Origin: Parcubacteria group bacterium
Lineage (GTDB): Bacteria; Patescibacteriota; Minisyncoccia; Moranbacterales; UBA2206
Direction of reading: 5' to 3'
Length of the DNA stretch: 60,768 bases
Assembly (NCBI GenBank): GCA_041661275.1
Contig: JBAZUU010000006.1
Coordinates: forward strand, 1 to 60,768
A program made the translations under genes and the position numbers. Of the stretch, positions 2,704-17,628 are shown in pieces (position 1 is the stretch's first letter; each line of letters starts with the position of its first letter). The notes under the pieces are model-generated. The model was not told where the DNA came from, made no database searches, and was given only the letters and a program-made list of their open reading frames with translations.

Positions 2704-3591
2704 ATGAAACCAAAAACAATAATAAATACCACTGAAGAATTTCTAACCTGGCTACAAGTCGAAAGACGATTTGCTAAAAGTTCCATCATCAGCTACTGCT
2801 CCCGGCTGAAAGGAATTGTACGCGATATAGGTGACTTGGAGATAAAAAATATTACCTCAGAGCACATTTTCAAACTCAAATCCATTCTGTATGAGAGGCA
2901 GAATTCAGAGGTTTTTACTGGAGTGGTGATGGCGGCCATCAAGGGGCTGCTGCTCTACGCCAGAGATCAGCTGAAAATTCCTATTCAGATTGACCCAGGC
3001 ACAATAACTATTCCAAAACGCAAACGGAAAGACATAATATATCTAACAGTGGACGAAATCAACCGGTTCAGGAACAGTATCAATATTAATACCAGCTGCG
3101 GATTGCGCTTTAGAGCTTTAGTAGAAACGCTCTTAGGTTCCGCCTGTCGCATCTCAGAAGCACTAAGCCTCAATCGCGACTCTATTTCTCCCATTGAAAA
3201 AGAAGCGAGGATAATCGGTAAAGGTGGGAAAGAAAGAGTCCTATATTTCAACGAAGATTCGCTATACTGGATCAATAAATATTCAGAAACAAGGACGGAC
3301 AATAATCCATCTCTTTTTATAACCACCGGAAAATCACCGCGTCAGCTCCGCAATCAGGATTTGAGCCGGTATTTCAAGCACCAGCGGTCGGTTGCAGGTA
3401 TTTCCAAAAAGGTCACGCCGCATATTTTAAGGCATACGGCAGCTACTACGATGGCGATGAATAACTGCTCTGCCATATTTATAAAGGAGATTTTAGGTCA
3501 CAGCCGACTCCAGACCTCAATTGATTATTATATATCCCTCGCTGACAAGCAAAAGGTGAAACAAGCACATCAAACTTTTCTAAAATATTAG
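2704..3591 (+). CDS. Tyrosine recombinase / phage-type integrase
   Basis: It has an N-terminal SAM-like core-binding region and a C-terminal catalytic domain with the motifs ARISEAL, HILRHTAAT and LGHSRLQTSIDYY. Confidence 0.9.
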   Translation: MKPKTIINTTEEFLTWLQVERRFAKSSIISYCSRLKGIVRDIGDLEIKNITSEHIFKLKSILYERQNSEVFTGVVMAAIKGLLLYARDQLKIPIQIDPGTITIPKRKRKDIIYLTVDEINRFRNSININTSCGLRFRALVETLLGSACRISEALSLNRDSISPIEKEARIIGKGGKERVLYFNEDSLYWINKYSETRTDNNPSLFITTGKSPRQLRNQDLSRYFKHQRSVAGISKKVTPHILRHTAATTMAMNNCSAIFIKEILGHSRLQTSIDYYISLADKQKVKQAHQTFLKY

Positions 3592-3634: not shown

Positions 3635-4363
3635 ATGGAAAATCCCAATAGCATAGAAGAAGTTATAGAACGAATACAGGAAAAATATAATAGCAGAAAG
3701 GGTTATGAGGAATTTAAGATTCTACTGCTGGATTCTGGCATTCTCAAGGATAGCCTTGATGATTTTTTTATGTTTCCTGAAGGCGAAAACTTTCCAACTG
3801 GCATTAGCTCTTATGCGTTAAAAGAAAAATTCCTGCTGAATAAGGATTTTTTGTTGGATCTGGCCTTAAATCTATACCAGTCCTTGGATGTCAAAAGAAA
3901 AGGGATGCTCCAGTATGCATTTAAGCTGGATGGCCTGACCATAGATAAGGATGAATTGTATAATAAAAATAAAATAGTATTTGAGGTGCAGTATAATAAT
4001 ATCGATAGGGTGCTCCGTGTTAATGGGAAGGGTATTACACGGCCGCGGTTTAACCGGGAGAATGATAATGTCTTCTCATATATTTATGAACATCCCAATC
4101 GACTTTTAATGGTCGATGCAAATGATAAATTAGAGGGTGCAGTTGAGGTTTTGAAAAGTTTGGATGATGTCGTAAAAAATCTTCGGTTTTCCAGAAATGC
4201 AAGGCAGCTATTTTTTCCAAAAGTTAGCGATAAGGAGATTGAGTTTAGAAATCCCATTACCCTGGGTGAGCTTAAGCAGAGGGGTTTTGATGAAAATATT
4301 ACCATAGACGATTTATTTCCAGATAAAAAGCTAGGCACAAAAAGGAATAAAAAGGTCAAATAG
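3635..4363 (+). CDS. Hypothetical protein
   Basis: Intact ORF lying between the two recombinase genes. No recognisable motif. Confidence 0.5.
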   Translation: MENPNSIEEVIERIQEKYNSRKGYEEFKILLLDSGILKDSLDDFFMFPEGENFPTGISSYALKEKFLLNKDFLLDLALNLYQSLDVKRKGMLQYAFKLDGLTIDKDELYNKNKIVFEVQYNNIDRVLRVNGKGITRPRFNRENDNVFSYIYEHPNRLLMVDANDKLEGAVEVLKSLDDVVKNLRFSRNARQLFFPKVSDKEIEFRNPITLGELKQRGFDENITIDDLFPDKKLGTKRNKKVK

Positions 4364-4441
4364 GAATAATTAGGCATACAGCAAGGATTAAAACATAATA
4401 TTGGTTCACAATGCTCTTAGATAACACTAGGAGTATTTTTT

Positions 4442-5407
4442 ATGTTTCCAATTTTCTCTGACAATTTAATCTTATCCCAGTGTTTTGACCGGCTTTTTGA
4501 GAATATCGAAGCGGATTGTTCGCTGTCTCAAAATTCCGTAGAAACATACAAAAGGATTTGCCCAAGGATTATCCAATTCTTCGGAGATATAAACATAAAG
4601 AAGCTGGATGCGCGGATGATTACCGGCTATAAGCAATTTCTCAATCGGCCAAGCCAGAAAAAGGAAAGATTGAGCGCGACATATAAGAATCAGCACCTGA
4701 CGTTGCTCAGGATACTCCTGAAATTTATTAAAGAAAAAGAGAACATAAAAGCGATGGATTATACGCTGGTTACTAAATATAAGGTTTCTGTCAAAGAGGT
4801 TGAGTTTCTGAATGAATCAGAGTTATCTAGACTGATGAATTACCCCAGCGACAAAACTATTACTGGTTGTCGAATGAGAGCATATCTTGAAACTTCAATT
4901 TCTACCGGCTGTCGGTTGACAGAAATAAGAAATTTGAAAATAGCCGATATCGATTTTGAAAATGGATCCGCCAATATCAGAACAAAAGGCGATAAGCCTC
5001 ATACGATTTTATTCAACAAATCATCATTGGAAGCGATTAAGAAATATCTGGATATGAGGAAAGACAATCACCAGAATCTATTCGTAACCGCCATGCCTCA
5101 TCCTAAACCTTGGCAGGGCAATGACATCGAGAGAAGTCTCCGGATGATTGGGAGAAAATTGAAACTCAGGAAGAATCTCAGGCCTCATTTATTACGGAAA
5201 TCAGCCGCGACGATTTTATACAAGAATAATGTTCCCTTGGGCGTGGTGCAGAATTTTTTAAACCATGCCTCGGCCAGAACCACCCTCTTACATTATCTTG
5301 GAAACTCAAATTTTCAGGAGCTGGAAAGAAATCACCGAAGAGTTATGGATAATCTGAATTTTAAAGATAAGACAGATTTATCTGGAGAGGAGGTGGAATT
5401 ACAATGA
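4442..5407 (+). CDS. Tyrosine recombinase / integrase (second copy, divergent)
   Basis: Motifs: GCRLTEIRNL, HLLRKSAAT and LNHASARTTLLHYL. Confidence 0.85.
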   Translation: MFPIFSDNLILSQCFDRLFENIEADCSLSQNSVETYKRICPRIIQFFGDINIKKLDARMITGYKQFLNRPSQKKERLSATYKNQHLTLLRILLKFIKEKENIKAMDYTLVTKYKVSVKEVEFLNESELSRLMNYPSDKTITGCRMRAYLETSISTGCRLTEIRNLKIADIDFENGSANIRTKGDKPHTILFNKSSLEAIKKYLDMRKDNHQNLFVTAMPHPKPWQGNDIERSLRMIGRKLKLRKNLRPHLLRKSAATILYKNNVPLGVVQNFLNHASARTTLLHYLGNSNFQELERNHRRVMDNLNFKDKTDLSGEEVELQ

Positions 5408-6638: not shown

Positions 6639-6666
6639 TTGACAATTGTTTATAATTAGTTATACT
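6639..6666 (+). promoter_or_regulatory. Sigma-70-type promoter
   Basis: TTGACA, 16 nt spacer, TATACT. Confidence 0.55.
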
Positions 6667-6674
6667 AAGACTAG

Positions 6675-7000
6675 TTGTTAGAAATGAAATTAAAACCTAT
6701 AGCTAGATCCTGGCATTATAATGTCCAGGGTTGGGTCTAGCTGATTTTAAGGAATAATATCCTTGAAAAGGTGGCTTTTGCATCAGTGAGAGCCCGGCAA
6801 TCCTCCGTAATCAAGGGAAAGCTGATGTCGTCCTGCTTAAGCGGGAGACTGAGTCAGTAAAGTGGTCTTAATCCGTTTTGCTGACGGATTTTTTTAATCC
6901 GTCAAAAATAGACAGATCGAGACAAAAAAGGTGGTACCACGGGATAACCTCTCGTCCTTTTGTCTAAGCTCTAGCTTGGGCAAAGAGACGGGAGGTTTTT
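6675..7000 (+). promoter_or_regulatory. T-box riboswitch leader with terminator/antiterminator
   Basis: The T-box sequence AAAAAGGTGGTACCACGGGATAACCTCTCGTCC starts near 6925. An alternative terminator pairs ACCTCTCGTCCTTTTG with CAAAGAGACGGGAGGT and is followed by TTTTT. Upstream hairpins could serve as stems I-III. Confidence 0.65.
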
Positions 7001-7102
7001 ATTTGACCTCCTAGCTAGATTATTGTATGCTAGCAAGTTCAGTTCTTTGAAAAACGATACGCAATAAACAATCTACCTGCAGGAGAAAAGGGAGAGCAAA
7101 TC

Positions 7103-7846
7103 ATGAAAACAGGAAAAATTATTATAATTGATGTATTAGACGATCCCCCATTCAATATAACTGAAATCTTTAAGGCAAGCTTAAAATCGGTGAATATTGA
7201 CGATCACTTGATCGTGGGGATTAATGGATTGGGCAATGATCTGTCTATGCTCCCAAAAATGAATATGTTGGGTGCTATAATTTCAGGGTCTATCCACCAT
7301 GTCATAGAGGATGGTGAAAAAGAATGGGGGAAATCTTTATTCCACTTTATTCGACAATATTATAATTGTATTCCTATTTTGGGTGTTTGCTATGGACATC
7401 AGGCATTGGCCCATGCTCTCGGTGGCGATGTCAGAGCTAACGAACGGGGGCGGGAAATTGGATCAGTGCAAATATTCCTAACAGAAGATGCACGAACTGA
7501 TAAATTGTTTTGTGACTCTGTTGACGGTGGATTTGTTCAAGAGAGTCATTTAGATCATGTCGTTTCCTTACCTAAGGGCGCAATTATTCTTGCTCATAAC
7601 CAACATTCACCAATACAGGCATTTAGAGTAGGAAAAAGTTGGGGGATTCAATTTCATCCAGAATTAAGTCCGCCCATGTTTAGACAGTTGCTAAAAGGAA
7701 GAATAAAAAGATTGATTGCTGATAACGAACATAATGAGGCAAAAAAACTTGAAAGAGTAATGGCGGGAATAAGGGATTGTCCAATGGCAGTTGAAATATT
7801 AAGGAAATTCATACTTCATTGCAAAGAGGAGAAAAAATATGTTTGA
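7103..7846 (+). CDS. Class I glutamine amidotransferase
   Basis: It has the nucleophile elbow GVCYGHQ and the IQFHPE motif. Confidence 0.8.
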   Translation: MKTGKIIIIDVLDDPPFNITEIFKASLKSVNIDDHLIVGINGLGNDLSMLPKMNMLGAIISGSIHHVIEDGEKEWGKSLFHFIRQYYNCIPILGVCYGHQALAHALGGDVRANERGREIGSVQIFLTEDARTDKLFCDSVDGGFVQESHLDHVVSLPKGAIILAHNQHSPIQAFRVGKSWGIQFHPELSPPMFRQLLKGRIKRLIADNEHNEAKKLERVMAGIRDCPMAVEILRKFILHCKEEKKYV

Positions 7847-9005
7847 TATCAAGCACATTCTCAAGAATCATGCGTATCAAAATGTACCCCTATCATACGA
7901 GGAGGCGTATTGCCTGGGTCGGATGACATTGGAAAGCTGTGCTGATTCTGCTGATAAGACGATCCAAATCCAAAGCATAGCCGCTCTGTGTGCTTTGCAT
8001 AATGGAGCGACCTATCGTTGGAGATGGAATGAGCGAGATGCAAGAATTCATGAACATGATCTTCCGACAAGTGCGGCAGAGCAAGTGGCGGGAATATGTG
8101 CGGCAGTATTTGAACACGATATTGCCAAATCTCGCTACGGATTTTTGCGACCGAAAGTCCCTTACGCCATTGACAACTGTGGAATGGGTGGCGACCTGAT
8201 CGTTACCGCCAATGTCAGCACAATCGCAGCATTTATTGCTTCGGCGACCGGTATCATCATGTGCAAGCATGGTTCGCCGGCTAATGCGGACAAGGGCAGG
8301 CATGGCAGTTCCGATTTCATCGCGCAAATCTGCGGAATCAACAACTTCGCTTCTAGGGATGCTGTTGAAAAGTGCGTGGAAAAGCTGGGGTTTGGATACA
8401 CTGAAGCCTGTGACACAGGATATAAGAGTATCCATATGCAGACTCACAAGATTGCGCTCCTTCCGCACATGAACGATATCATCGGTCCGATCACCAATCC
8501 TGTTGATCCCAAAATCATGACCAAAAAAATTCTGGGCATGAACCATCTGGTTCCTCCCAGAGTGGCCGCGGAAGTCTATCAAATCCTCAACCGGAAGGGC
8601 ATTACCCATCTGGAGCACGGTTTCTTTATCCGGGGATTTATCAGCAGCGACCAGTATGACGGCATCGATGAAGTGTCGGTCTGTGACGGCGGGACTCAGG
8701 TGGCTGAACTCAGGGAAGGTGAAATCCATGAATACTGTCTTCATGCCAATGATTTCGGGCTGGATGTTGTATCGCTGGAGAACATTGTACCGCTGGGAAG
8801 TAAGGGCGACTATTCGATGAAAATCCTTCGCGGAGAGATCAATGGGTCTCGCATTAAAATAGTCCTGGCTAATGCGGCATTACTTTTCAAACTGGCGGGT
8901 TTTTCCAGAGATCTCAAAGAATGTTACAAGATAGCGGAAGAGACTCTCAAAAGTGGTAAGGCATACGAAAAGATGATGTCCGTTAGACAGGAAGTGCCGC
9001 TGTAA
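7839..9005 (+). CDS. Anthranilate phosphoribosyltransferase family (glycosyl transferase family 3, TrpD-like) protein
   Basis: DNCGMGGD, KHGSPANA..GSSD and IIGPITNP resemble the TrpD GTGGD, KHGN and GPLxNP motifs. It overlaps the upstream gene by 8 nt. Confidence 0.65.
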   Translation: MFDIKHILKNHAYQNVPLSYEEAYCLGRMTLESCADSADKTIQIQSIAALCALHNGATYRWRWNERDARIHEHDLPTSAAEQVAGICAAVFEHDIAKSRYGFLRPKVPYAIDNCGMGGDLIVTANVSTIAAFIASATGIIMCKHGSPANADKGRHGSSDFIAQICGINNFASRDAVEKCVEKLGFGYTEACDTGYKSIHMQTHKIALLPHMNDIIGPITNPVDPKIMTKKILGMNHLVPPRVAAEVYQILNRKGITHLEHGFFIRGFISSDQYDGIDEVSVCDGGTQVAELREGEIHEYCLHANDFGLDVVSLENIVPLGSKGDYSMKILRGEINGSRIKIVLANAALLFKLAGFSRDLKECYKIAEETLKSGKAYEKMMSVRQEVPL

Positions 9006-9024
9006 AATCCAAAAGGATGAGGGG

Positions 9025-9702
9025 GTGCGAACCGCACTCCCTCTCCACAAAACAATAGGGAGAAAATCGGTGAGGTGTAATAATTTATCGGCAATCGATG
9101 CGGACTTATGGGTTTTTGATAACGACGGTACGCTTTATCGGGATACACGGCCAATCGAGAATGTCGTCGAATCTTTCATGATTGATTTTATAGCCAGATA
9201 TTATGGGCTTAATCGCGAACAGGCGACGACAAAAAGGAGGGAGATTTTACGAAAGTATCGGACTTCCTATACTCTTATCGCAATGCGTAATGAAGGTGTA
9301 GACGAAGACGAATTCATCCGGGCTACCTATCTCAAGGTAAATCCGTCGGATTACGGAATATCCGATAGCCCTGACTTGAGGAATATTCTCTTGAGTTGCA
9401 AGGGGGAGCGGATCGTTCTTACCAATAACGTTTCAGAATTTGCAAATGCAATTCTTTGCTCTCTCGGTATCCGTGATCTTTTTTCCTCCATCGTGGGAAT
9501 GAGAGAACGAAATTTTGCGCAAAAACCAGATACAAGTGCCTTCGGTTTTGTGCAATCTGCGCTTAGAGTCGGCAGATCAGTGGCGTTTCTGGATGATGGA
9601 ATCGAAAACATTAAAACCACAAAACAGCTCGGCTGTGTTACAATACTAGTGAAAAATAGGGAGCTCACCGAGTATGCAGATTTCAGAGTTCAATTGTCAT
9701 AG
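9025..9702 (+). CDS. HAD-superfamily hydrolase
   Basis: It has the FDNDGTLY motif I and a C-terminal FLDD motif. The start codon is uncertain. Confidence 0.7.
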   Translation: MRTALPLHKTIGRKSVRCNNLSAIDADLWVFDNDGTLYRDTRPIENVVESFMIDFIARYYGLNREQATTKRREILRKYRTSYTLIAMRNEGVDEDEFIRATYLKVNPSDYGISDSPDLRNILLSCKGERIVLTNNVSEFANAILCSLGIRDLFSSIVGMRERNFAQKPDTSAFGFVQSALRVGRSVAFLDDGIENIKTTKQLGCVTILVKNRELTEYADFRVQLS

Positions 9703-9724
9703 ATATGGCGAAAGGACTCAACTT

Positions 9725-9758
9725 GAGGTGGACTGCATTTTAGTCCACCTCGTTTTTA
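9725..9758 (+). terminator. Intrinsic terminator
   Basis: GAGGTGGACT hairpin paired with AGTCCACCTC, followed by a T-run. Confidence 0.7.
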
Positions 9759-9774
9759 TTAAATAAGTACAGAT

Positions 9775-10470
9775 ATGATTGATATATATTCAACATTTGC
9801 CAAAGATTTTATTTATTCTAATAATAATTTGATTTCCCAACGAAAAGGTGGCCCGGCTTTTTTTATTGAAAATGTTTTTAAAAAAAATGATATTAAATAT
9901 AGATTGTTTACCGGAGAGCCTATTCAAATAAAGATACAGGTAATAGAGAAAGGAGAAAGCGGAACGATAGAAAGTAAAATAATAAAAAAGGCTATTATTG
10001 AAAATAATCGAAATGATTTTATTTTGATTTCCACTATAAGTGATGAATGGATATTGAAAAGCGACTTATCAAAAGAGGGTGAAATATTTTTGGATGTTCA
10101 GGGTTATGTCAGGGCGGCGAAAGAAGACGGGTCTATTTATAAATCGATTCTTTGGAATAATATTTTTTGCATGAAAGGAACTCAGCAAGAAATTGATTTG
10201 ATACCGGAAGATATCATTGAACGTCAAAAAGATAAACTGCTAATAATAACCAATGGTAATAAGGGATGTAAAATTTTATTTAAGAAAAAGGAGCGTAGCT
10301 TTAGTCCCCAAAGAATAATAGTTGCGAAAGATACGATTGGAGCAGGGGATACCTTTTTTGCTAGCTTTATGGTTAAATTTATGCATACTAATGATATAAC
10401 AAAAAGTGGAAACTTCGCTGTCGAAGAAACAGAAAAGTTTTTAGCATCAAAAAATAATGAGCAAAATTAA
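9775..10470 (+). CDS. PfkB-family carbohydrate/nucleoside kinase
   Basis: C-terminal DTIGAGDTF signature. Confidence 0.7.
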   Translation: MIDIYSTFAKDFIYSNNNLISQRKGGPAFFIENVFKKNDIKYRLFTGEPIQIKIQVIEKGESGTIESKIIKKAIIENNRNDFILISTISDEWILKSDLSKEGEIFLDVQGYVRAAKEDGSIYKSILWNNIFCMKGTQQEIDLIPEDIIERQKDKLLIITNGNKGCKILFKKKERSFSPQRIIVAKDTIGAGDTFFASFMVKFMHTNDITKSGNFAVEETEKFLASKNNEQN

Positions 10471-11284
10471 GCAGCTATTCAAAAAAGATAGGAATATAAT
10501 TATCGGAGCAGTACATTTTCCTCCGCTTCTAGGGTATCCTGGTTTTCCAGGCTTCAAAATAGCTCTTAAGAACGCACTTTGCGATCTCAAGGCTTTTGAG
10601 AACGGTGGAGCAGACGGAATTATTTTTGAGAATAATTATGATATTCCCCATAAAACATTTGTTGATCCGGAAGTGGTTGCTTCCATGGCATATCTGGGAG
10701 AAAAAATAAGAGCCAATACGAAGTTGCCTGTTGGAATAAGCGTTTTATGGAACGATTATAAAACGGCACTATCAATTGCTAAAATTTTAGATTTGCAGTT
10801 TATAAGGATTCCGGTCTTTGTTGATAAAGTAGAAACGGATTACGGGATAATTGAGGGGGAAGCTAAAAAGGTTATTGAGTTTAGAAAATCAATAGATGCA
10901 GAAAATGTTGCCATATTTACGGATATTCACGTAAAGCATGCGAAGTTATTATCAAAATACGACATCAAGACATCGGCGAAGTTAGCTATGGAAAATAGAT
11001 CTGATGCAATTATTATTACTGGAAAGTGGACAGGGCAAAGTCCGGATATTAATGAGTTAAAAGAAATCAGAAAAACTGTCGGTGATTTTCCGATTTTGGT
11101 AGGAAGTGGCTTAGACGAAAATAATGTAATAAATCTTTTCCAATATGCTAATGGAGCTATTGCAAGTACCTCTCTAAAGGAAGGAAATAAAACAGAAGAG
11201 GTTAATGTAAAATCTTACATGCAAAGAATCGACAATAAAAAGGTCAATCTATTGGTAGCGAGCTTGATAGGAACCAGCGATTGA
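10457..11284 (+). CDS. BtpA/SgcQ-family TIM-barrel protein
   Basis: The N-terminal GAVHFPPLLGYPG region and the protein length are typical of the BtpA family. Confidence 0.65.
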   Translation: MSKIKQLFKKDRNIIIGAVHFPPLLGYPGFPGFKIALKNALCDLKAFENGGADGIIFENNYDIPHKTFVDPEVVASMAYLGEKIRANTKLPVGISVLWNDYKTALSIAKILDLQFIRIPVFVDKVETDYGIIEGEAKKVIEFRKSIDAENVAIFTDIHVKHAKLLSKYDIKTSAKLAMENRSDAIIITGKWTGQSPDINELKEIRKTVGDFPILVGSGLDENNVINLFQYANGAIASTSLKEGNKTEEVNVKSYMQRIDNKKVNLLVASLIGTSD

Positions 11285-11364
11285 CAATTATTGCATTAAA
11301 CGCTACCATAAGTAATACAAAAAGTATCAATGAACTAAACAATAACATACAGGAGGGTGTGCTT

Positions 11365-11559
11365 ATGACTCTTGAACAGGCTGAAGATTGCCAAGAAATA
11401 GTCCATTGGTGCAATGGTAACGTCAGAAAGATGCAAGAGGATGGAAAGACCCATGAGGAAATATCTCAGGCGTGTCTAAATTCTATCTGTCCCCATATCG
11501 AGGAATCATGCATTGATCCGAATGTTATCCATCGCTATGTCGGTGTATGTTTGTCCTAA
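11365..11559 (+). CDS. Small Cys-rich hypothetical protein
   Basis: ATG preceded by AGGAGGG. The longer TTG-initiated ORF from 11281 is less likely. Confidence 0.4.
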   Translation: MTLEQAEDCQEIVHWCNGNVRKMQEDGKTHEEISQACLNSICPHIEESCIDPNVIHRYVGVCLS

Positions 11560-11589
11560 GTTCTTTCTTTTTAACGAAACCCTTATTGC

Positions 11590-11666
11590 GGGCGTGTAGC
11601 TCTAATGGCTAGAGCATCGGACTCCAAATCCGAGTGTTGGGGGTTCGAATCCCTCCACGCCTGCCA
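11590..11666 (+). tRNA. trnW: tRNA-Trp (anticodon CCA)
   Basis: A manual cloverleaf fold works: acceptor GGGCGTG/CACGCCT, anticodon stem TCGGA/TCCGA with loop CTCCAAA, T-arm GGGGG-TTCGAAT-CCCTC, discriminator G, and an encoded CCA. Confidence 0.9.
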
Positions 11667-11667
11667 C

Positions 11668-11694
11668 CCTATCTTATCATAGATAGGTTTTTTT
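11668..11694 (+). terminator. Intrinsic terminator after tRNA-Trp
   Basis: CCTATCT hairpin paired with AGATAGG, followed by a T-run. Confidence 0.7.
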
Positions 11695-11785
11695 ATTTCC
11701 AGACAAATTAAAAAGCAGGTTTTGCATAATTTCTGCAAAACCTGCTCTGTCTATTTTCTGTTAATTCCAACTGCTTCTCTCCCGC

Positions 11786-13330
11786 CTAACCTTTCAGTTT
11801 GGCGACCAGTTCGTCAATTAATTCCATGGTCGTGTGGTTCATAACGACGATGTTCCAGACTGTGGATTTTTCCGAGTTGAGCGGATTCGAAAGGTCAGCA
11901 GGAAAGCCTTCGTGGACATGCGTGATATAGATATTGCGCAATGCTTCCGGTATCTCGCCTTTCACTGCGACGATGTTGATATCGTTATGAAAAGTCTGAA
12001 ACCCGGCGCTTTCCAGTCTCAGCCGAATGCCGTGAGCCATGGAAGTCAAGCGGTCGGCGAAGTGTTCGTAACCTTCCTTGCCGATTTTCTTCATGGCAGC
12101 CCAGCAACTGAGAGCTATGGTGCCCGAACGTGATCCGCAGAGAGTGCAATCGTTGCCGGGAATGTAGGGGGCGATAGACTTTACTCTCTGGAAGAGGCCG
12201 CGACGTGCCAGAATGATACCGCTACCATAAGGCGCCAGCCCCATTTTATGAACATCGATCGTGATAGAGTCGACGCGTTTATTTGAAAATCCGATTTCCG
12301 GCAACCAATCGATAAAGGGGATTACGAAGCCACCGAATGCCGCATCCACATGAAAGTGAATATTGGTTTCCGGGTACTGAGCTTTAGTTTCCTCAACGAT
12401 GTCATTCATGGCGGGGATGTTGTCTACCGAGCCGAGCATAGTCGTTCCGGCATTTCCTACCACGATTATGTTGGAAATACCTTTGTCTGCCAATTCGCGC
12501 AACTTCTGTTCAAACTGATCAAGCAGAAGATGGCCAGTGTCATCGGTACCGAGAAGGTGCAAACCATTTCCATCGGCGCCAGCTTCGATTCCTATGCCCA
12601 GTACGTTGGAGGCCTTGATCACGGAATAGTGTGTAAGGTAAGAGCAGATGATGGCGCAAGGCTTTTGCCGATGGGCGTCTCTACCCATCCAGCAACCGAC
12701 CAGATTGGCCTCGGTTCCACCGGAAGCTATGTATCCATCAACTTCTTGAGGGTCGGCATTCATGAGATCTGCGGCCATAGCGATCACTTCGCGTTCGGCA
12801 GCTTGAGTTCCGCCGAAGCCGATTTCGCAGTCGCACATGTCCTTGTTGGTATGCATGCCGATATTGTTGGGATGACGATCGAGATATTGATTGTAAACCT
12901 CGACTGCAATGGGTTCAGGGATGGTGCCGGGGAAGCCGACAATCTTGTCTTTGCCGTAGCAGATGTTCTGATCTGCAAAAGCCTGGATCTGCGCTCTGAT
13001 TTTGGTATCATCAGTCGAGCTTTGCCAGCTAGGTCTAGACTTGCTTCCGAGGCAGACCTCTGCATGTCTGTTTTCCTCGAGATTTCCGCAGGCAGGACAC
13101 TTAGCAGGAGTGGCTTCCGTGGAAATAGCACCGAACTGAGTCCCACAACTTGCGCATCTGCACTTTTCCTTGCTGATGCGTACGATGTTGCAATTTTCGC
13201 CCTTGATGACATCGTTACATTGAGGGCAACAAACGTTTCCCTTTTCATCGGGTTGTTCATCGCCGAAAGTCAAATCACAACGGGTGCAGTAAAGCCGACC
13301 AAAATTTGTTGCTTGCGCGAGCATAGTCAT
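11786..13330 (-). CDS. PLP-dependent group II decarboxylase (MfnA-like) with an N-terminal double zinc-ribbon extension
   Basis: The C-terminal ~400 aa carry HVDAAFGGFVIPF and the lysine motif DVHKMG. The N-terminal ~100 aa carry four CxxC pairs: CTRC, CPQC, CASC and CPAC. Confidence 0.8.
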   Translation of the reverse strand: MTMLAQATNFGRLYCTRCDLTFGDEQPDEKGNVCCPQCNDVIKGENCNIVRISKEKCRCASCGTQFGAISTEATPAKCPACGNLEENRHAEVCLGSKSRPSWQSSTDDTKIRAQIQAFADQNICYGKDKIVGFPGTIPEPIAVEVYNQYLDRHPNNIGMHTNKDMCDCEIGFGGTQAAEREVIAMAADLMNADPQEVDGYIASGGTEANLVGCWMGRDAHRQKPCAIICSYLTHYSVIKASNVLGIGIEAGADGNGLHLLGTDDTGHLLLDQFEQKLRELADKGISNIIVVGNAGTTMLGSVDNIPAMNDIVEETKAQYPETNIHFHVDAAFGGFVIPFIDWLPEIGFSNKRVDSITIDVHKMGLAPYGSGIILARRGLFQRVKSIAPYIPGNDCTLCGSRSGTIALSCWAAMKKIGKEGYEHFADRLTSMAHGIRLRLESAGFQTFHNDINIVAVKGEIPEALRNIYITHVHEGFPADLSNPLNSEKSTVWNIVVMNHTTMELIDELVAKLKG

Positions 13331-13645
13331 TCTCCTTTTGACAGATTTGTCGGGTTGTTTTTACGTATTTTCGCTCTATTTCGGCCTATTGGCATGAAAT
13401 GCAAAGCCTCCTTTAGATGGATTAAAAAATTAAAGAACGTAAATACTCCTTGATTTGGAGATTATAGTAATCTATGAGGGTTGTCAACTAACAAGGGTGT
13501 TTCCAAATTTGAATTGACAAAATGGATTAAATCCGCTTGAATAAGTAGAACACTGTAAATGGGCGAGTGTTGGCATATTATTGTCTCATGCCGACCTAAT
13601 AATGGATGTCAATATTACTATCATACGGAACATAGGAGGTTGACA

Positions 13646-14656
13646 GTGGAGAGACAAATCGTTCTTTCAGGTATCAGAGCAACAGGGAAATTGCACCTGG
13701 GTAATTACGTAGGTGCGCTCAAAAATTTTGTCGAGCTTTCCAGGGATGAGGCGAAGAAATGTTTCTATTTCATCGCCAATCTGCACACACTCACGACGCA
13801 TACCAATCCGTCCGAGTTGAGGGCAAGTGTCAAGGATATCGTGCGCGATTTTCTGGCATGCGGGCTTGACCCGAAAGTGGCAACGATTTATGCCCAATCC
13901 AGCGTTCCGGAAATCACTGAGTTGTCCTGGATTCTGTCGTGCATCGCGCCACTGAATCTCTTGACCATCATGCCTCACTTCAAGGAGAAGCGAGACAAGC
14001 TCAACGAATCAGGCATCACGGAGAACGCCGGACTGCTGACCTATCCGATTCTCATGGCTGCCGATATTCTTTGCGTCAAATCCGAACTGGTTCCGGTTGG
14101 CGATGATCAAGCGCCTCATGTGGAGTTCGCTCGCGAATTGGCCAAAAAGTTCAACGATATGTTCGGAGAACTGTTTCCCATGCCGAAGTTTTTCGGAGGA
14201 GCAGGACTCAGACTGCCCGGCCTTGATAATCGTGGCAAGATGAGTAAGAGCGAAGTTTCGAGCGTCATCTATTTGGATGACAGCCCTGATGCTGTATGGA
14301 AAAAGCTCAAAGTGGCGGTTACCGATCCTCAGCGGGTCAAAAGGCACGATCCGGGCAACCCAGACGTATGCAACATCTTTACGTTTCATCATGCGTTGGA
14401 AACACCGGTAGGCGACATCACGCGGATAACCAGGGAATGCAAAAGCGGGGAAATCGGATGCATCGAATGCAAGGAGATTCTGGCTAAAGTCGTCAACGAC
14501 ATTCTCCGACCGATCAATGAACGAAGAGAGCAAATCATCGGCCTCGGCGCAAGCTATATAGATGAAGTCATGCACGATGGTGGCTTGCGAGCGCGCAAGG
14601 TAATTCAGCAAACGGTGGCCGAAGCCAAGGAATTGGTGGGAGTTCCATTGTACTAA
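13646..14656 (+). CDS. trpS: Tryptophan--tRNA ligase
   Basis: It has the class I HIGH-like GKLHLGNY motif, KMSKS, and TrpRS length. The GTG start at 13646 lies 6 nt after AGGAGG. The ORF-track start at 13559 is probably too far upstream. Confidence 0.9.
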   Translation: MERQIVLSGIRATGKLHLGNYVGALKNFVELSRDEAKKCFYFIANLHTLTTHTNPSELRASVKDIVRDFLACGLDPKVATIYAQSSVPEITELSWILSCIAPLNLLTIMPHFKEKRDKLNESGITENAGLLTYPILMAADILCVKSELVPVGDDQAPHVEFARELAKKFNDMFGELFPMPKFFGGAGLRLPGLDNRGKMSKSEVSSVIYLDDSPDAVWKKLKVAVTDPQRVKRHDPGNPDVCNIFTFHHALETPVGDITRITRECKSGEIGCIECKEILAKVVNDILRPINERREQIIGLGASYIDEVMHDGGLRARKVIQQTVAEAKELVGVPLY

Positions 14657-14697
14657 TCTGGCATTGATTCAAACAATTTTGAAAACAATCCAACCCC

Positions 14698-14727
14698 AGC
14701 CGGTTCATCGAGACCGGCTGTTTTTTT
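14698..14727 (+). terminator. Intrinsic terminator after trpS
   Basis: AGCCGGT hairpin paired with ACCGGCT, followed by TTTTTTT. Confidence 0.75.
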
Positions 14728-16317: not shown

Positions 16318-17628
16318 ATGCCAAATTTTGAGAATCCGTCCATTAACAAGATTTTTGAAAACAGGAAGGATTTTATTCCTGAAGTCGGAAAGAAACTTGA
16401 GGAAGAAACAAATGTCGCAGTAGAAATTAACGGAGAAAAATTGAATGTTGATTACAGAGTTATTTCAGTCGAATCTCAGGAAAACAAGGATGGGGATGCA
16501 GTTGTGGTATTGCCTGGGTTTGGTTCAGGATGGGAGGGAATTTCAGAACTGGGATTTTCACTAGCTTGCGAGGGTAGAAAAGTAATTATGCCTTCACTCC
16601 CTGGATACAGTAATTCGGATAATCCGTCTGAAAATTATTACAAGACCAATAACTTTGATAATGAAGCCGAAGTTATCAATCAGCTTGTTAGTCAAATATG
16701 ATTAAAAGAAGGGACAAAAGTTCATCTTGTCGGACATTCTATGGGTAGTGAAATTATGGCGACTTTTGCACAAAAATATCCAGATAAAGTTTCCAGTTTG
16801 GTTTTACTGAATCCAGCAGGAGTTAATGATAAAGAAAATAAATTTTCACTTGGTGGAAGATTTGTCGGTTCTGGAATAAAAACTTCAGCCGAATATAGTA
16901 TCCGTTCCGCTTTTTCAGGTGAAAAGGATTATGAAAAGGAAATATGGAAGAGTATTCCTAAAACTGAAAGTCCCTTTGCGAAAAGCAGAGGCTCTCAAAG
17001 ATTATCGGAGGTAAGCAGGCTATCAGAAGGACATTTATTGGAAAAGATAAAAGATACAAAATGTCCCATTACTTACATTTCTGGACAGATGGATACGGTT
17101 TATCCTCCAGGCGAGGAAGGCGATGAAAATTCGCAGTTAGCTAGAGTAATCGAAAGCGTGAAAGATAAAACTAGGATTGAGAAGAGTGTAATGGCAGGAC
17201 TTCGTCACAATACCACTATTGCTCCTGATGAAATTACTGCAGCCAACATTGAACATTATTTGGAAAAAGCAGAAATTAAAAATGAAAGGGAGAATATAAA
17301 GAAAATGATTATAGCTTTAGCGAAAGAACTTAGTGAAATAAAGGAGAGTCTTCCTTTTTCTGGGATTGACCCTGAAAGCTATCCAAAATTAAAAGCCAAT
17401 GATGTGGAACTGGAAGGTCTCTGCACGCCAATAGATGATTTGATTCAAAGATTTGAAAAAGAAGGTATAAAAGTAGTTTTTGGAAATGACCCTGAAAGTG
17501 GCAACGTCTTTATTTTACCTTTTGGTAGCAATGATGTTGAAAGCGACAGCGTCTTTCCTAAGCATTTGCAAATTGATGAATCTATGGACAGCAGGCTCAA
17601 AGAACTAATCTTAGTAAGCAAGAGCTGA
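16318..17628 (+). pseudogene. Alpha/beta hydrolase with a C-terminal extension, interrupted by a single in-frame TGA (16699-16701)
   Basis: ORFs 16318-16701 and 16741-17628 are in the same frame. Read through the TGA, the sequence is VSQI*LKEGTKVHLVGHSMGS, which restores the GHSMG nucleophile elbow. Confidence 0.7.

Follow-up and report, generated by a model that had tools for sequence, protein, structure and literature searches.

The window analysed here is a 60,768-nucleotide (nt) stretch of DNA from a Parcubacteria group bacterium (GenBank contig JBAZUU010000006.1, positions 1 to 60,768), and our subject is one locus in it: a T-box riboswitch leader, the operon behind it, whose core is a TrpD-like phosphoribosyltransferase gene and a BtpA gene, and the flanking genes (Table 1). 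A preliminary description of the stretch, made from its letters alone, had named the protein-coding genes as a class I glutamine amidotransferase (GATase), a TrpD-like protein, a HAD phosphatase, a PfkB kinase, a BtpA-family protein, a pyridoxal phosphate (PLP) decarboxylase and trpS. In Pfam and NCBIfam searches all seven calls proved right at the family level. The tRNA-Trp(CCA) gene that it had seen in the cluster was recovered as well and is the sole tRNA found in the window by ARAGORN and Rfam. It had further held that this is not a standard tryptophan (Trp) biosynthesis operon, and we agree: with TrpE, TrpC, TrpB and TrpA queries taken from a verified canonical trp operon (locus L005), tblastn found none of these genes in the window; trpF had no query of its own.

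The window starts inside a bacterial 16S rRNA gene and covers the 3' 1,340 nt of it (positions 1-1340). Since all close relatives of the window proteins come from metagenome-assembled genomes (MAGs) of Patescibacteria, or Candidate Phyla Radiation (CPR), the T-box locus belongs to the chromosome of a bacterium that is ultra-small and presumably symbiotic. Its closest relative, locus L076, was the comparison reference for both leader and genes.

Table 1. Features of the T-box locus, with positions in the window
Feature	Position	Strand	Evidence or remark
Sigma-70-type promoter, TTGACA-16 nt-TATACT	6639..6666	+	11/12 consensus matches, best of the region; site and sequence kept in L076
T-box leader, whole	6692-7005	+	Transcriptional, canonical antiterminator/terminator
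Decoding domain	6692..6821	+	AAAACC, ultrashort Stem I, accessory hairpin, Stem II, IIA/B pseudoknot
Stem I	6701..6742	+	Minimum-free-energy fold; distal elbow-binding platform absent
Specifier UGG (Trp)	6732..6734	+	3'-side bulge of first hairpin, followed by purine G6735
Stem II and IIA/B pseudoknot	6773..6818	+	Hairpin 6773-6778/6789-6794; pseudoknot 6795-6818
Stem III with inserted U-run hairpin	6865..6923	+	-22.3 kcal/mol, z = -4.8
Antiterminator with T-box sequence	6920..6965	+	Fold -12.9 kcal/mol, 7-nt bulge, Rfam alignment
Intrinsic terminator and U-run	6946..7005	+	Helix 6946-6997, -34.1 kcal/mol, z = -6.5
Class I GATase, gamma-glutamyl-peptidase-like	7103..7846	+	PF00117 68 bits, Peptidase_C26 27 bits
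TrpD-derived phosphoribosyltransferase	7839..9005	+	Glycos_transf_3; best curated match TrpD
HAD phosphatase, pyrimidine 5'-nucleotidase/Sdt1-like	9025..9702	+	PF00702; TIGR01993 92.5 bits, below cutoff
Terminator-like hairpin and U-run, HAD/PfkB gap	9724..9752	+	12 bp, 6 GC, then TTTTT
Short PfkB-like kinase, 231 residues	9775..10470	+	PF00294, C-terminal part only
BtpA/SgcQ-family phosphate-binding TIM barrel	10457..11284	+	TIGR00259 224.2 bits
Small Cys-rich open reading frame (ORF), ~64 residues from ATG 11366	11366..11559	+	Listed as 92-residue TTG ORF from 11281
tRNA-Trp(CCA), G73, encoded CCA end	11590..11666	+	ARAGORN and Rfam
Group II PLP decarboxylase (histidine decarboxylase/MfnA/serine-decarboxylase clade)	11786..13330	-	PF00282
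trpS, tryptophanyl-tRNA synthetase	13559..14656	+	TIGR00233 306 bits vs cutoff 177

The T-box leader and its specifier

A T-box core and a competing terminator had been noticed in the leader, and both were confirmed. The T-box sequence GGTGGTACCACGG lies at 6930-6942 (extended form AAGGUGGUACCACGG, 6928-6942) in a textbook antiterminator, and the bulge of this fold, UGGUACC, occupies 6932-6938. Its first four nucleotides, UGGU (6932-6935), are complementary to the 3' GCCA of tRNA-Trp, including a G-U wobble at G73. The 5' strand of the terminator is at the same time the 3' strands of the antiterminator, so that the two helices are mutually exclusive. None of 200 shuffled sequences folded as well as the terminator, and an equivalent terminator was present in every aligned leader. 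Between its end and the start codon (ATG, 7103) there are 95 nt, and the switch does not include the Shine-Dalgarno sequence, GGAG. A translational T-box of the ileS type, which acts by Shine-Dalgarno sequestration and has no terminator, was rejected on these two grounds: the strong U-run terminator and the position of the Shine-Dalgarno sequence.

Stem I measures only ~42 nt. A lower helix (6701-6707/6736-6742), a closing pair (U6708-G6735) and an upper helix (6709-6713/6725-6729) with a 6-nt apical loop leave a 5-nt bulge, GUUGG (6730-6734), on the 3' side. The Rfam scan proposed in the preliminary description recognised this leader in part. In a permissive local scan RF00230 matched it with 41.5 bits (E = 1.3e-7), below the gathering score of 93, and the alignment also covered the Stem II and IIA/B region but deleted 86 Stem I model positions. 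The window and 10 related loci gave no Rfam T-box call at the gathering threshold, a score that all 12 related CPR T-boxes examined (ten such leaders plus two others from the same loci) failed to reach. Because the model fell short of its gathering score and skipped Stem I, the specifier was assigned by comparative analysis instead. The invisibility of CPR leaders at the Rfam threshold also means that the T-boxes of Patescibacteria are probably systematically under-annotated.

Homologous leaders stand directly 5' in loci that encode relatives of the TrpD-like protein. When 17 decoding domains were aligned to a hand-drawn structure, 89.9% of paired cells were filled by pairs and 15 pairs had compensatory changes; 0/500 shuffles matched the observed score, and slide controls were clean. 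A covariance model built from this 17-sequence alignment, R1, scored the decoding domain of the window at 98.2 bits (E = 1.8e-22), overturning the Rfam shortfall, and the L076 leader at 101.7 bits. Across the TrpD-like loci, 908 kb in total, R1 gave 27 matches at E <= 4e-10, 10 of them outside the training set. They fell one per locus, always on the coding strand and 5' of the TrpD-like gene; the archaeal loci among the 908 kb gave none. In a second test (28 sequences, refitted alignment) 97.6% of cells were paired, 21 of 25 pairs carried compensatory changes and again no shuffle out of 500 reached the observed score. Covariation extended to 7/7 pairs in the lower and 5/5 in the upper helix of Stem I and to 5/6 pairs of Stem II, whose loop is conserved as UGCAUCAGUG. 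In the pseudoknot, IIA is invariant and IIB showed compensatory changes in 4/4 pairs, though it was absent from the model used for fitting; its covariation is therefore independent support.

Which codon does the Stem I bulge present? Across leaders the bulge reads (G/A)(U/C)UGG and is followed by G. UGG was invariant in 27/27 R1 matches (in three of them in the terminal loop, not the bulge), in L076, and in 73/73 further leaders recovered by a genome-wide scan for the conserved pseudoknot motif, all from CPR MAGs; ~93 of these leaders are distinct. The same leader type stands directly 5' of trpS in 10 genomes and 5' of trpB2 in 6 (TrpB2 confirmed, 729 bits vs a cutoff of 366). The variable position of the antiterminator bulge is C in 29 leaders and U in 34, and linked tRNA-Trp genes have G73 whether the bulge reads UGGC or UGGU; in TBDB, U is found opposite G73 in 46% of Trp T-boxes. 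A leucine specifier, UUG or CUG, was rejected: the nucleotide 5' of UGG is not constant (U, C, G or absent), UGGC in 29-plus leaders fits G73 whereas tRNA-Leu has A73, and trpS is among the genes behind the leader. The preliminary description had offered UGG at 6732-6734 as a possible Trp specifier. With an invariant UGG, covarying flanking helices and a leader type that precedes trpS and trpB2, this assignment is now shown by comparative evidence. We conclude that the leader is, by its sequence, a functional-looking, transcriptional, Trp-specific T-box.

Three further observations concern this leader type and its relatives. The Stem III insert (6870-6912), conserved in L014, L018, L029, L031 and L076, is present in several lineages and missing from others. 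It can fold in two alternative ways, as a terminator-like hairpin, AAUCCGU...ACGGAUU with U7 behind it, or as the hairpin GACGGAUU...AAUCCGUC, and could be a second decision point or a pause site. A UGG leader of the same type lies directly 5' of tyrS-aspS in six Staskawiczbacteria (L118, L126, L127, L129, L141, L149; tyrS assigned by TIGR00234, 357 bits). This is an unexpected place for a Trp specifier, and is either cross-regulation or the mark of a TyrRS-like enzyme of different specificity. Finally, L014 (the same locus as L002) has a second CPR T-box at ~11830-12090, before argH-argG, with the Arg codon CGC in a terminal-loop Stem I, GUCGCGA, and a UGGU bulge; both this T-box and one before a class II aminoacyl-tRNA synthetase gene in L040 are below the Rfam threshold. 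An ultrashort Stem I thus seems general to CPR T-boxes and not particular to Trp.

The TrpD-like/BtpA core and its neighbourhood

The TrpD-like protein scored 148.7 bits against TIGR01245, below the equivalog cutoff of 199. In the PDB its 25 sequence hits are without exception anthranilate phosphoribosyltransferases (AnPRT; best E = 8.5e-27), and so are the top 50 Foldseek matches in the PDB to its AlphaFold2 (AF2) model (mean predicted local distance difference test score, pLDDT, 88.6; template-modelling (TM) scores 0.79-0.87 on the target). Neither these 25 sequence hits and 50 folds nor NCBIfam at E <= 0.01 revealed any affinity to thymidine, pyrimidine-nucleoside or AMP phosphorylases. The preliminary description had named a place within the nucleoside phosphorylases as one of two results that would undo its reading. 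As no such phosphorylase emerged from any search, we do not place the protein among them; it belongs with AnPRT.

Within this fold, the motifs for phosphoribosyl pyrophosphate (PRPP) and Mg (GMGGD, TANVST and G(I/M)DEVS) are retained and invariant in the family. All anthranilate contacts are replaced, equally invariantly: KHGNR by KHGSP, H-P by Y-K and RxxLGxRT by HxIAxLPHM. Glycos_trans_3N (PF02885) was undetected, though it was detected in the genuine TrpD of L005, and the first 100 residues form a conserved N terminus specific to the family. The family is compact: among 1.84 billion representatives searched, 26 clusters matched from residue 1 at E <= 1e-30, and ordinary TrpDs came next, at 30-36% identity over residues 105-385 only. 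A profile-guided genome scan gave 70 loci, which belong to Patescibacteria or DPANN archaea (Nano-, Woese-, Aenigm-, Micr- and Nanohalo-archaeota), save a few MAGs with doubtful labels. We conclude that the protein is a TrpD-derived, predicted PRPP-dependent phosphoribosyltransferase with a remodelled acceptor pocket.

BtpA exceeded its family cutoff (TIGR00259, 224.2 bits vs 153.4; PF03437, 216.5 bits) and had no sequence homologue in the PDB. From the family profile, the C-terminal beta7-beta8 phosphate-binding segment alone aligned to known structures, best with TrpA (E = 2.7e-5). TrpA was also the top Foldseek match of the AF2 model (pLDDT 88.5), but CutC, KDPG aldolase, HisF, TrpF, ThiE and RPE scored near-equal. 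The model thus describes a phosphate-binding barrel. The only description of cyanobacterial BtpA is that of a factor in photosystem I biogenesis, and our literature search found no enzymatic function for the family. The regulated core is a lineage-restricted pair of uncharacterised paralogue families.

Which genes keep company with this pair? An unbiased clustering of every ORF within 5 kb, over 71 loci, returned the TrpD-like gene in 68 and BtpA in 61 (20 archaeal), almost always directly 3' of the TrpD-like gene and on the same strand. The gene for tryptophanyl-tRNA synthetase (TrpRS) lay within 5 kb in 37 loci (13 archaeal). Less frequent were the short PfkB-like kinase (13 loci), the PLP decarboxylase (12, usually beside trpS), an M20 peptidase (12), HAD phosphatases in three separate clusters (10, 8 and 4), a fusion of chorismate mutase II with a methyltransferase (10-11, CPR only), a low-molecular-weight phosphatase (8), an inosine-uridine (IU) nucleoside hydrolase (6, of which 3 archaeal) and an EamA transporter (5). 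Radical S-adenosylmethionine (SAM) proteins (4 loci), NUDIX (4), an AstE-type deacylase (3-4), GNAT (3) and the GATase (3) completed the list. The low-molecular-weight phosphatases keep the CX5R(S) catalytic loop; one of them is fused to the TrpD-like protein (L006) and another to EamA (L007). Of 21 tRNA genes found in 38 CPR loci, 12 are tRNA-Trp. The Trp theme of T-box, tRNA-Trp and trpS, remarked on before from the single locus, is therefore borne out and conserved across CPR and DPANN. TrpE, TrpC, TrpB and TrpB2 were found neither in the window nor in the 70-plus TrpD-like loci (908 kb); trpF was not queried separately.

In other CPR genomes the leader controls trpS, trpB2, EamA and MFS transporters, M20, AstE and GCS2/GGCT genes, and catalytically intact low-molecular-weight phosphatases also stand under it; B. 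subtilis ycbK is a precedent for an EamA-family transporter under a Trp T-box. The MAGs with the leader on trpS (10), trpB2 (6) or tyrS (6) all fall outside the set with a TrpD-like gene, as judged by comparing MAG accessions, with a TrpD-like scan that recovers 8/13 known positives and with MAGs that are incomplete. TrpB2 is 62-68% identical across phyla. The separation of the leader-on-trpB2 MAGs from the TrpD-like set suggests, within the limits that MAG incompleteness sets, that different lineages rely on different solutions, either the TrpD-like operon or TrpB2, and that the two are not parts of one shared pathway.

Some loci hold further genes of possible relevance to Trp. The fusion of chorismate mutase II with a SAM-dependent methyltransferase occurs in L012, L013, L015, L029, L030, L036, L040, L043, L049, L059 and L061, and a weak CM_2 protein in L046, L053, L071 and L075; CPR organisms are thought to lack the shikimate pathway, and such a fusion beside TrpD-like and BtpA genes is thus odd. 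L076 carries a Trp_repressor-family gene (PF01371, 105 residues, 4177-4494) 5 kb 5' of its T-box operon. L018, L026, L040 and L042 have two TrpRS genes each, flanking the TrpD-like and BtpA genes and 33-53% identical to the window TrpS. In L085, L114 and L128 the Trp leader stands 5' of a YbdK/GCS2-like carboxylate-amine ligase gene, and in L114 and L128 the next gene, which matches no curated family, looks by eye like a gamma-glutamyl cyclotransferase gene. Taken with the gamma-glutamyl-peptidase-like GATase of the window, the ligase loci hint that the Trp regulon includes gamma-glutamyl conjugates.

The remaining genes of the window locus can be described briefly. The GATase gene, which overlaps the TrpD-like gene by 8 nt, was rejected as TrpG: its best NCBIfam match is PRK09065 (155 bits) or the GuaA N terminus, its best PDB matches are GuaA subunit A and GGP1, and it scores 34 bits on the TrpG model. 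It occupies the first-gene position in 3/71 loci only; an EamA transporter is there in L076. The strong hairpin between HAD and PfkB, which coincides with a drop in GC content, may divide the operon into two transcription units. We rejected the PfkB gene as a truncated pseudogene, for the same short form (226-231 residues) occurs in 13 loci. The small ORF had no match in Pfam or NCBIfam scans; its C-terminal 67 residues are 63% identical to a called 63-residue gene of L076. The PLP decarboxylase has an N-terminal extension of ~110 residues, scores 197 bits on the MfnA model, below cutoff, and has histidine decarboxylase 7eru as its best PDB match (E = 7e-29). No T-box was found upstream of the window trpS by R1 or Rfam.

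Function of the operon and competing explanations

From a Trp-specific T-box 5' of the operon it follows that the operon is induced by Trp starvation. The switch would work as follows. The CCA anticodon of tRNA-Trp would pair with UGG on the 3' bulge of the ultrashort Stem I, and Stem II with the IIA/B pseudoknot would stabilise the anticodon contact, just as they do in the ileS T-boxes of Actinobacteria. An uncharged tRNA could pair through its 3' GCCA with UGGU of the antiterminator, and this weak helix, held by the tRNA, would then prevail over the much stronger terminator and let RNA polymerase enter the operon. Starvation would in this way induce the GATase-like, TrpD-like and HAD genes and probably also the PfkB-like kinase, BtpA, the small ORF and tRNA-Trp. 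The TrpD-like enzyme may couple PRPP to a non-anthranilate acceptor, or may work in reverse with a ribotide as substrate; for BtpA a phosphorylated intermediate is the possible substrate, with kinases and phosphatases setting the phosphorylation state. A ribosylated or phosphorylated precursor or conjugate would thus be processed toward Trp in auxotrophic symbionts, with the variable kinases, phosphatases, amidohydrolases and transporters assisting the TrpD-like/BtpA core. Even in archaea, which have no T-boxes here, the core is tied to trpS (13 archaeal loci). The operon most likely serves Trp acquisition under starvation, and we infer the direction of the enzyme, its substrate and a product that is Trp or a direct precursor. 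Overall, we give a probability of roughly 0.6 to a Trp-specific, T-box-controlled and starvation-induced acquisition or salvage operon with a TrpD-like/BtpA core proper to CPR and DPANN.

Several results weigh against this interpretation. The genes seen make up no chemically complete route to Trp, and the TrpD-like loci have no TrpB-type enzyme. The PfkB-like kinase, the Sdt1-like HAD, NUDIX and the IU-nucleoside hydrolase fit a generic nucleoside or ribose salvage equally well, and the BtpA fold fits many phosphate-binding barrels equally. In this genome the hairpin at 9724-9752 may halt T-box-controlled transcripts before PfkB and BtpA. The Stem I platform, thought essential in transcriptional T-boxes (PMC7583486), is missing. 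With the UGG leader before tyrS-aspS in six Staskawiczbacteria, the regulon is not purely Trp-annotated, and ~40% of CPR loci with a TrpD-like gene have no detectable leader.

A bolder version of the acquisition reading would make the TrpD-like protein and BtpA the core of an unrecognised PRPP-dependent route to Trp, indole or a precursor, an alternative to TrpB2, under a platform-free class of T-box in CPR. We regard this as tentative, possible but not probable. Nothing on a TrpD-like/BtpA module was found in a literature search.

Perhaps the operon serves nucleosides instead? In a generic nucleoside or pentose-phosphate salvage, the TrpD-like protein would be a nucleotide or nucleoside phosphorylase, or a phosphoribosyltransferase acting on ordinary bases, comparable to the AMP phosphorylase (glycosyltransferase family 3) of the archaeal/CPR pentose-bisphosphate route. 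BtpA, PfkB, HAD, NUDIX and the IU-nucleoside hydrolase would process ribose phosphates, and the Trp T-box would report starvation through the scarcest amino acid. The PfkB-like kinase is indeed similar to ribokinase, nucleoside kinase and ribose-1-phosphate kinase. The HAD resembles Sdt1-type 5'-nucleotidases, NUDIX and the IU-nucleoside hydrolase recur (the latter in 6 loci), and the TrpD-like protein keeps its PRPP motifs yet loses the anthranilate contacts. However, its neighbours in sequence and structure are all AnPRT, with no phosphorylase match; the linkage to trpS persists in DPANN archaea, where no T-box could act as the proxy; tRNA-Trp genes are enriched nearby; and the same leader controls trpS and trpB2 elsewhere. 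We consider such a salvage unlikely.

The recurrence of trpS within 5 kb, in 37 loci of both domains, raises another alternative: that the module is centred on TrpRS or tRNA-Trp and not on Trp supply. It might produce or eliminate a TrpRS modulator, such as an inhibitor or Trp analogue, or take part in a tRNA-linked transformation that involves the adjacent PLP enzyme. The second TrpRS copies in four loci are consistent with this idea, as is the co-directional arrangement of trpS, PLP decarboxylase and tRNA-Trp in several loci, and the TrpD paralogue TrpD2/YbiB is a nucleic-acid-binding protein. On the other hand, PRPP/Mg catalytic motifs are invariant, which is unexpected in a pure binding protein; the sequence of the PLP enzyme is that of an ordinary group II decarboxylase, and its gene is not part of the T-box unit; and a leader shared with transporters and amidohydrolases speaks for the acquisition of a metabolite. 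This, too, we find quite unlikely.

The preliminary description had seen in the cluster an accessory cargo on a mobile segment, horizontally acquired and keyed to uncharged tRNA-Trp. Two tyrosine-recombinase (Phage_integrase) genes do lie upstream (2704-3591 and 4442-5407, 1.2-4 kb from the leader), as does a LAGLIDADG gene (1629-2102), and composition inside the cluster is heterogeneous. Against a mean gene GC of 0.408 +/- 0.045 in the window, the TrpD-like (0.483), PLP decarboxylase (0.505) and trpS (0.499) genes are GC-rich (z about +2), BtpA has 0.360, and PfkB, with 0.300 (z = -2.4), is the most AT-rich gene of all. The claim that 7.1-9.7 and 11.8-16.2 kb are GC-rich therefore stands for these three genes but not for the GATase (0.38), and its borders are imprecise. 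Synteny of the module holds in more than 70 genomes drawn from many lineages of CPR and DPANN; the genes downstream of it are ordinary. No integrase is among the recurrent neighbours in the 71 loci, the recombinases being adjacent in this window only; att sites were not searched. The recombinases could be of the Xer type or mark the edge of an integrated element.

Comparison with L076 points the same way. There the order is EamA, TrpD-like, HAD, PfkB, BtpA, M20, DUF169, small ORF, PLP decarboxylase (opposite strand) and trpS. The leader (81% nt identity), TrpD-like protein (86%), PLP decarboxylase (86%) and TrpS (88%) are collinear and closely similar, whereas HAD (37%), PfkB (42%) and BtpA (45%) are distant, and the first gene differs. 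With the block at 37-45% and its flanks at 86-88%, in-place displacement and not cargo insertion accounts for the difference: as judged from these identities, HAD-PfkB-BtpA (9.0-11.3 kb) was exchanged, within a conserved frame, for remote members of the same three families. The mosaic acquisition that had been suspected survives in this form alone. Given the synteny across lineages, no recurrent integrase, and trpS and the only tRNA-Trp gene seen, which are essential housekeeping genes, inside the cluster, we reject the mobile cargo, to which we assign a very low probability. Just as improbable is a decayed T-box remnant with the operon constitutively terminated or read through, which would suit the low RF00230 score and the missing distal Stem I, deemed essential in the literature: ~93 leaders keep every element and an invariant specifier with abundant compensatory substitutions, so that the structure is under purifying selection, terminator and antiterminator are intact, and the leader has kept 81% identity with its L076 counterpart despite the replacement of neighbouring genes.

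Other features of the window were noted in passing. The recombinase pair flanks an unannotated ORF of 242 residues, just 5' of a response-regulator gene and the T-box. Most bacteria have GCCGCGGTAA in their 16S rRNA; the partial gene of the window reads GTGCCAGCAGTAGCGGTAAT at this site. The LAGLIDADG homing-endonuclease ORF (GC 0.31) follows the 16S gene in place of a 23S gene, and large-subunit rRNA was undetected across the whole 60 kb. The ORFs 16318-16701 and 16741-17628 correspond to the N- and C-terminal parts of an alpha/beta-hydrolase fold (Abhydrolase_1 profile positions 2-62 and 78-224) and look like a single gene split by a stop or frameshift.

If the acquisition reading holds, the riboswitch acts as a natural label that assigns BtpA, long an orphan family, and a highly conserved, uncharacterised paralogue of TrpD to a Trp-starvation regulon. 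This regulon, with trpS, trpB2, transporters and amidohydrolases, is now defined for presumed amino-acid auxotrophs, and how episymbionts obtain their scarcest amino acid becomes experimentally approachable. The linkage of TrpD-like, BtpA and trpS across CPR and DPANN speaks for inter-domain transfer or for convergent retention suited to an ultra-small symbiotic lifestyle.

Relation to known systems

The TrpD-like protein is comparable to TrpD (TIGR01245; PDB 1kgz, 1zyk, 4yi7, 9ucw) in its two-domain AnPRT fold (TM about 0.85), its glycine-rich PRPP loop, N-x-ST and the DE Mg-binding motif. It departs from TrpD in scoring below the equivalog cutoff, in its exchanged anthranilate contacts, in its restriction to CPR and DPANN, and in loci without trpE, trpC, trpB or trpA partners (tblastn; trpF not queried separately). 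The likeness of BtpA to TrpA, the tryptophan synthase alpha chain, is confined to the generic phosphate site. With indole salvage by stand-alone TrpB2 the operon shares the leader type and hence the same Trp-starvation regulon, but the protein families are unrelated, TrpB2 being a fold-type II PLP enzyme.

With canonical T-boxes (RF00230; the Firmicute trpS, trp-operon and rtpA-ycbK leaders) the window leader has in common a UGGN bulge facing the tRNA 3' NCCA, mutually exclusive antiterminator and intrinsic terminator, a purine after the specifier on the 3' side of Stem I, and Stem II with the IIA/B pseudoknot. U opposite G73 is shared with Trp T-boxes in TBDB. Unlike canonical T-boxes, it has a Stem I of ~42 nt without the AG bulge/distal loop that forms the tRNA-elbow platform, three CPR leaders place the specifier in the terminal loop, and the regulated genes are no known Trp biosynthesis, transport or aminoacyl-tRNA synthetase set. 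No paper on T-boxes in CPR was found in our literature search.

Actinobacterial ileS T-boxes likewise have an ultrashort Stem I and keep Stem II and IIA/B (Sherwood et al. 2015, reviewed in PMC7583486). The window leader matches them in its truncated Stem I without elbow platform and its retained Stem II and IIA/B, and by analogy the decoding logic is presumably the same. The ileS T-boxes, however, are translational (Shine-Dalgarno sequestration) and specific for Ile, and their Stem II is a long helix with an internal S-turn; the window leader, from Patescibacteria, has a strong terminator, is specific for Trp and has a short Stem II hairpin with a conserved 10-nt loop. According to a 2020 review (PMC7583486), a transcriptional T-box generally depends on the Stem I platform to capture tRNA quickly, and ultrashort versions of Stem I are typical of translational T-boxes, mostly those of Actinobacterial ileS. 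The ~93 leaders described here unite an ultrashort Stem I with an intrinsic terminator, a departure from this current view. We conclude that the leader is a new structural and regulatory variant of the T-box riboswitch class.

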